From the NCBI GenBank assembly GCA_038087875.1, contig CM075990.1:62001-126000 (forward strand): DNA of 64,000 nt. The letters are read 5' to 3'. Shown one piece after another: positions 32,969 through 33,106 of this stretch. The notes below the pieces were generated by a model. It made no database searches, was not told the DNA's origin, and worked only from the letters and a program-made list of their open reading frames with translations. The stretch is from Malacoraja senta (Eukaryota). The first letter of the stretch is position 1; each line of letters starts with the position of its first letter. The position numbers were made by a program, and so were the translations under genes.

Positions 32969-33106
32969 TCTTCTTCTTCTTCAACCCGACGTGCACAGCC
33001 TAAAGTTGTTGGTCAACTTGTTCTATTTGATCTTGTTTGTGCACGTCGGGTTGATTGTATTAGTCGAAACAGGGTGGACCAGGTGAAGGTTGCAATCTCC
33101 CACTCC
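32969..33106 (-). mobile_element. ~138-bp non-autonomous retroelement with ribozyme head and (GAA)n tail (Vingi/Ingi-like, tentative)
   Basis: (TTC)n at 32969-32982; 17-bp inverted repeat 32981-32997/33038-33054; possible TSD TTATTGT/TAATTGT; no Pol III boxes seen. Confidence 0.7.
33053..33106 (-). ncRNA. Minimal HDV-like ribozyme (decayed copy)
   Basis: GGAGUGG(P1)-GA-GAUUGCA(P2)-ACC(P3)-UUCACCU(L3)-GGU-CCACCCU(P1')-GUUUCGA-CUAA(J4/2)-UACAAUC(P2'). Confidence 0.75.

Follow-up and report, generated by a model that had tools for sequence, protein, structure and literature searches.

Short retroposons that are internally deleted long interspersed elements (LINEs) and begin with a ribozyme are already established, as described in three reports (PMC3414825, PMC4035085, PMC3383444). 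In trypanosomatids, NARTc, RIME and SIDER derive from L1Tc/ingi and carry a ribozyme of the hepatitis delta virus (HDV) type that cleaves at position +1 (PMC4035085, PMC3383444). In Drosophila, R2 SIDE and R2/R1 SIDE likewise combine a 5' ribozyme with the 3' end of a LINE and are mobilised in trans (PMC3414825). Here we describe a 138-nt element on the minus strand of Malacoraja senta contig CM075990.1 (assembly GCA_038087875.1). It lies at 32969..33106 of a stretch of 64,000 nt (contig positions 62,001 to 126,000), which we call the window and to which all coordinates refer. The element belongs to family A, which is dispersed, has about 10,000 copies of 130-138 nt and starts with a predicted ribozyme of 54 nt without P4, taken from an animal LINE that lacks RNase H. 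In contrast, the ribozyme of the trypanosomatid elements is 77 nt long and includes P4, and their promoter is proven; R2 SIDE is specific for ribosomal DNA, rare and headed by a long ribozyme. The window element is very probably a decayed short retroposon derived from a Vingi-type LINE, whose first 54 nt are a predicted P4-less HDV-like ribozyme that would free the RNA from host transcripts.

Minimal drz or theta ribozymes are likewise HDV-like without P4, about 55 nt long and with the catalytic C first in J4/2, and P4-less ribozymes of 54-56 nt are active in vitro (PMC10879173). In that work, nearly 99% of them lie in phages beside tRNAs and the eukaryotic set comes from human, mouse and protists, whereas the family A ribozyme heads an animal retroelement. 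Vingi LINEs have one open reading frame (ORF) with APE and reverse transcriptase (RT) domains, no RNase H and a length of about 3.1 kb, like the partner LINE described below (PMC13708176). Bipartite derivatives are reported for this group, in which Vingi-1_EE, Vingi-2_Gav and SINE2-1_AMi are placed (PMC5786205, PMC13708176). PMC5786205 gives six ribozyme-bearing clades, Vingi not among them, and the 5' end of Vingi is not described there as a ribozyme. The mammalian CPEB3 ribozyme (RF00622) has the same L3, single C-G P1.1 pair, G1-U wobble and register as family A. Family A differs from it in the letters of P1, P2 and P3, in lacking P4 and in not scoring on the CPEB3 model, and the CPEB3 ribozyme is single-copy and conserved; its sequence is matched by a sister LINE lineage and by families B-F. 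We found no published description of an animal retroelement with a minimal ribozyme that lacks P4. Nor did we find one of base pairing between the 5' and 3' untranslated regions (UTRs) of Vingi-type elements, or of a Vingi ribozyme or a link between CPEB3 and Vingi. Some Vingi ribozymes may have been reported under the name 'Ingi', and older Vingi/Ingi literature, Repbase or patents may contain part of these points.

The window element and its family

The original prediction, made from the letters of the window, read the minus strand from 33106 as the ordered segments of an HDV-like fold, and re-reading the window gives the same order. The predicted 54-nt domain (33053..33106) starts at G1 (33106), which is both the predicted cleavage site and the 5' end of the family. 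The 5' strand of P1 (33100..33106) is followed by that of P2 (33091..33097) and by P3-L3-P3 (33078..33090; P3 strands 33090-33088 and 33080-33078, L3 33087-33081), in which C22-G37 forms the single P1.1 pair. The P1 3' strand (33071..33077), J1/4 (GU) with a 5-nt loop in place of P4 (33064..33070), J4/2 (33060..33063) with the predicted catalytic cytosine C44 (33063) and the P2 3' strand (33053..33059) complete the fold, all on the minus strand. The three suspected substitutions of the window copy, G3A, G25C and G49A, stand out against the 29 best other genomic copies, which have G3 in 27/29, G25 in 25/29 and G49 in 29/29. P1, P2 and the L3 sequence UUCACGU are restored in these relatives, as had been anticipated. 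On the evidence of these copies a chance fold is ruled out for the window element, because they restore the predicted pairs of P1 and P2 as well as L3. The window copy itself is probably inactive, judging from three disabling substitutions in its predicted ribozyme.

The suggestion of a multi-copy family holds. A DNA search of the 1.94-Gb genome returned 2477 candidates, the best 29 besides the window copy being 90-96% identical. A 22-mer of the ribozyme has 4645 exact matches and a 25-mer of the 3' end 2880, with 0 for either reversed control. Since the 22-mer is exact in 36 of 90 sampled copies, a rough estimate is about 11,600 copies. The sample comprises the first 90 of 100 listed matches to the 3' motif, selected by that motif alone, which favours young copies. 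Their 5' ends cluster at G1 as predicted: position 1 is the start of 66/90 and position 2 that of another 11 (77/90 at G1 or G2), while 3 begin at position 3, 1 at position 5 and 8 deeper, and 1 is a LINE fragment. A set of 79 copies is left once 3 duplicates and 8 rows that are truncated or LINE-derived are removed. Target-site duplications (TSDs) of 7-16 bp with a mode of 12 flank 71/79 of these, five flank-swapped controls giving 0, and the duplication adjoins position 1 in 57/71. A T stands immediately 5' of G1 in 49/79 copies compared to 30% in the background, which may reflect a nick preference or a requirement of cleavage. For the window copy a 7-bp TSD had been proposed. A duplication is present in degenerate form, with 8 bp and one mismatch (33107..33114 at the 5' side; 32959..32966 at the 3' side, 7/8 matching), against a family mode of 11-12 bp. 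The (AAG)n tail occupies 32969..32981. Near-identical sequence occurs in 20 public sequencing runs under five organism labels.

P1, P2, P3 and P1.1 follow the nested double-pseudoknot order, and all 18 pairs together with the core are intact in 30/79 copies. C44 is kept in 70/79, U20 in 75/79 and G25 in 66/79, and G1 forms the expected wobble. As in minimal drz ribozymes, 5 nt without a stem replace P4 between J1/4 and J4/2. No tRNA lies near the ribozyme at 8/8 loci, and the phage-borne position at a tRNA 3' end that defines theta ribozymes does not apply. Changes that mark subfamilies (G8A, A32G and position 45) sit in J1/2, in position 2 of J4/2, or convert U-A to U-G, and leave the fold intact. 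Across 11 families and subfamilies, 190/198 cells are paired compared to a maximum of 155 in 2000 shuffles, a count that is inflated because the rows were picked for fit and register. Both sides have changed in 12/18 pairs. U20, C22, U26, G37 and the AA of J4/2 are invariant in the 11 rows, and the catalytic C is present in 10/11, the exception being an old, CpG-decayed copy. The fixed position and register of the fold are independent of row selection. Modelled in this way, intact family A copies form the complete 54-nt HDV-like fold, for which self-cleavage is predicted. Minimal P4-less ribozymes, so far almost confined to phages, would thereby be placed in an animal genome in thousands, and the intact predicted copies could affect host transcripts.

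We also ran a descriptor of the fold on 77 metagenome loci encoding relatives of the LINE, many of them 5'-truncated. It matches five families (L191, L203, L208-210, L215/216 and L252), all in sense orientation and upstream of the ORF, and has 0 matches in three shuffles of the 77 loci. An earlier, stricter descriptor matched only L191 and L208-210. When the catalytic C is swapped in the descriptor, only L189 matches, which has a 5-nt J4/2 starting with C. The regions L181:1-150 and L192:1-200 show a P1-like helix with a non-canonical or expanded core and are possibly other ribozyme variants.

The partner LINE and a predicted helix joining both ends

A LINE sharing both ends with the short element, as the original prediction expected, is found in the same genome and has about 3.1 kb and a single ORF. 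The proposal of a SINE-like family mobilised by a Vingi/Ingi-like LINE is supported as regards the Vingi-type partner. The element is a LINE that has lost its interior, not a short interspersed element (SINE) that captured a head. It consists of LINE nt 1-~78 (33029..33106 in the window), a filler of 12-13 nt (33017..33028) that partly duplicates adjacent sequence and is common to most copies, and the last ~45 nt of the LINE (32982..33016 in the window), which include the stop codon of the ORF. One locus selected by the 3' end preserves the coding end with a CCHC motif and the stop codon inside the shared 3' end. With both ends of a same-genome LINE, TSDs and a 3' repeat tail, family A is a bipartite non-autonomous LINE of the SIDE type.

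Walking upstream led to L112, a full-length LINE with an 11-bp TSD that begins with the same 54-nt P4-less fold and whose ORF contains APE and RT domains. Its closest intact homologue, P0001, has 1019 aa and is 72% identical to the partner LINE, and no Pfam match to RNase H is found in it. Pfam searches of P0001, the L107 pieces and family B agree on a single ORF with APE and RT and without RNase H, and this domain architecture points to a Vingi-type LINE. All LINE copies examined are broken. Six independent copies have inverted 5' ends (L091, L092, L097, L099, L101/L102 and L113), three of which break at nt 75-81. These frequent inversions are twin-priming-like, and three of them have TSDs. 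Contigs of four public runs aligned to L112 contain at least seven other deletion junctions, which connect a point in element nt 58-94 with the final ~45 nt and keep the ribozyme in all cases.

A second feature is common to the two ends. Element nt ~60-69 pair with nt ~110-119, forming a clamp of 8 bp in the LINE-like form, to which the window copy belongs, and of at least 10 bp in the major subfamily. The clamp was computed with ViennaRNA, which cannot fold the pseudoknot. In families B, C and L191 an equivalent position is also helical although the letters are unrelated (p 0.001-0.003 compared to shuffles, for windows set after the pattern was seen); a weaker helix forms there in L208, L203 and L215/216, and the clamp is significant in 4/7 families. 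In the window copy the 5' arm (33038..33054) and the 3' arm (32981..32997) form 17 bp compared to 8-10 bp in the family. Here nt 118-125 equal the reverse complement of nt 53-60, so that 32989-32982 now carry the 5' arm in reverse complement and a perfect inverted repeat results (33054-33038/32997-32981), which occurs once in the genome. This 8-nt overwrite, seen in the window copy only, is the trace expected of a template switch between the two sides of a paired stem.

We propose that source copies would be transcribed by RNA polymerase II (Pol II) from upstream. C44 would catalyse Mg2+-dependent cleavage 5' of G1 and leave a folded 5'-OH end resistant to exonucleases. The RNA would likely be cut from read-through host transcripts at G1 and then likely be copied back by the LINE protein. 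With one arm directly behind the ribozyme and the other directly ahead of the tail, the clamp would close the RNA, and it is the probable target of recognition by this protein; such recognition of the closing helix would explain why both element ends are always kept. Its endonuclease and RT would insert the RNA by target-primed reverse transcription, generating duplications of 10-14 bp. The window copy would later have gained its three fold substitutions and the template switch that perfected its clamp. This scheme offers a reason why internally deleted derivatives arise in only a few LINE clades, which PMC5786205 does not answer. In a gene-writing platform based on Vingi, the donor RNA carries both UTRs (PMC13708176), and a natural 130-nt donor with ribozyme and UTR helix indicates the minimal parts needed in cis.

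CPEB3-like ribozymes at Vingi-type 5' ends

Related elements match RF00622 and, weakly, RF02682. L208:3117-3189, with which a TSD-flanked Vingi-type LINE begins, scores 55.6 bits on RF00622 (cut-off 35). By our own count it equals the printed consensus at 35 of the first 37 positions. The same CPEB3-like 5' end is found in L209, L210 and the truncated L234. In the source genome RF00622 scores 59 sequences, 39 of them above cut-off, and the 30 matches that we read are 5' ends of the family B LINE and of the short families C to F. Family B (L259-L262, L264-L266, L268, L289-L293) is a second, younger 3.1-kb LINE with up to 64 bits, copies 97-98% alike, a full P4, a 9-bp 5'-3' helix and an open stretch of 940 aa. 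Family C (L269-L275, L300-L324; 2358 candidates) is bipartite, about 180 nt long and flanked by TSDs. It carries a second P4-less ribozyme core, in which P1 often has 6 bp, and a 12-bp clamp. Family D (L276, L279, L280, L283, L288; 5 copies found) is old and about 100 nt long, and its ribozyme matches CPEB3 including the P4 stem. Families E (L277, L278, L282) and F (L263, L267, L285) are short elements with a CPEB3-like ribozyme head. At least five short families occur in the genome, and in two of them the P4-less core has 54 nt. In a quick RT tree, family B and L208 fall into one clade (SH-aLRT 99), separate from family A. RF00622 does not score family A, L191, L203, L218 or L252 and is therefore not matching just any HDV fold.

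The motif extends to crocodilians. As given in the supplement of PMC5786205, the Vingi-2_Gav 5' end agrees by eye with the Rfam consensus at 52/54 positions outside distal P4. The alligator SINE2-1_AMi of the same supplement shares the CPEB3 P4 stem and has a damaged CPEB3-like ribozyme behind its tRNA head. In the main text of that paper the word 'CPEB3' is absent and the SINE2-1_AMi ribozyme is not noted. By this comparison, the CPEB3 ribozyme of mammals was likely exapted from the 5' end of a Vingi element. This direction is favoured because the ribozyme is described in mammals (PMC8233481), whereas in crocodilians, the source genome and metagenome contigs the motif normally makes up the 5' end of this LINE lineage, and because Vingi traces occur in the human genome (PMC5753468). 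Convergence was considered and judged unlikely, as helix letters vary freely in families that do not score on RF00622. Mammalian contamination of L208 was rejected in view of its different P4, the TSD-flanked LINE and the second copy L234. We consider it probable that Vingi-type LINEs, through ribozyme head and end clamp, spawn mini-retroposons of 100-190 nt repeatedly and that the CPEB3 ribozyme was domesticated from one such 5' end. This would give a testable origin, and mobile relatives, to the best-studied self-cleaving RNA of mammals.

Alternative explanations and surroundings

A different account of the uniform 5' end makes the 5' segment mainly an internal Pol II promoter starting at G1, with a protective or protein-binding pseudoknot that cleaves little or not at all, or with both functions overlapping. 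Pr77 of L1Tc is promoter and ribozyme together (PMC3383444), and by this analogy a promoter may overlap the family A ribozyme, where the original prediction had self-excision from host transcripts stand in for a promoter. For R2 templates, PMC11331408 reports that a stable fold itself raises insertion efficiency, and the family A ribozyme has no P4 and a single P1.1 pair. However, the catalytic C (10/11), U20, C22, G37 and the AA of J4/2 are kept though the helices diverged among families, and a cap-like extra G is not systematic at the 5' junction, where extra bases occur in 13/71 copies and are mostly T. We regard this account as unlikely. Far less probable is that the short copies are recurrent deletion products of full-length LINE RNA reverse-transcribed across its paired ends. 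The pairing of the UTR arms, the several deletion junctions and the inversion breaks at nt 75-81 would suit it, but most copies have in common one 12-13-nt filler and linked diagnostic changes that are missing from the LINE, and short copies outnumber LINE-type 5' ends by about 45:1 (4645 versus 104 exact motifs). This route would account for the birth of the family and not for its spread, and the junctions and subfamilies that copies have in common already refute it for the most part. Least credible is a conventional Pol III SINE with a head that only looks like a ribozyme. Weak A-box-like (nt 5-15) and partial B-box-like (nt 37-47) words, judged by eye, and the lack of a run of four T are compatible with it. 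Against this, no tRNA is found in 5/5 copies and no Rfam match to tRNA, 7SL or 5S, and the head is the 5' end of the LINE itself, unlike that of a classical SINE.

Several observations weigh against a self-cleaving, Vingi-derived retroposon, besides the row selection and the late choice of clamp windows mentioned above. A uniform 5' end can also be attained by an internal promoter. The check with cmsearch proposed in the original prediction fails, as Rfam ribozyme models give only noise for the window copy and 5/5 other family A copies. L189, L215/216, L252 and L254 were omitted from the 11-row alignment for other helix lengths, and the apparent 5' regions of L181, L182 and L192 fall outside the descriptor. 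The clamp is not significant in L208, L203 and L215/216 (p 0.09-0.14) or in the mutated L112. RT trees obtained with a quick method contain unnamed relatives and no named Vingi protein; the 5' end of the named Vingi-2_Gav matches the L208/family B lineage. At non-CpG sites of the family A sample the ribozyme diverges by 2.3% and the sequence immediately downstream by 2.4%. The ribozyme decays as fast as the adjacent sequence, and individual copies therefore decay neutrally, without selection on the ribozyme of each copy. None of the 20 runs with near-identical sequence is recorded as RNA.

The window is repeat-rich, and no clear gene is seen in it. The element is flanked by a SINE that we take to be HE1-like. 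A repeat at 33140-33499, also present at 28270-28632 and 38114-38500, has its end immediately upstream of the element, where a short hairpin precedes the letters CTAG; this is presumably a Helitron-like 3' end. Other LINE fragments lie at 7050-8549, 21220-21957, 47978-49193 and 54350-56725 and are, as we assume from their motifs, CR1-like and L1-like.
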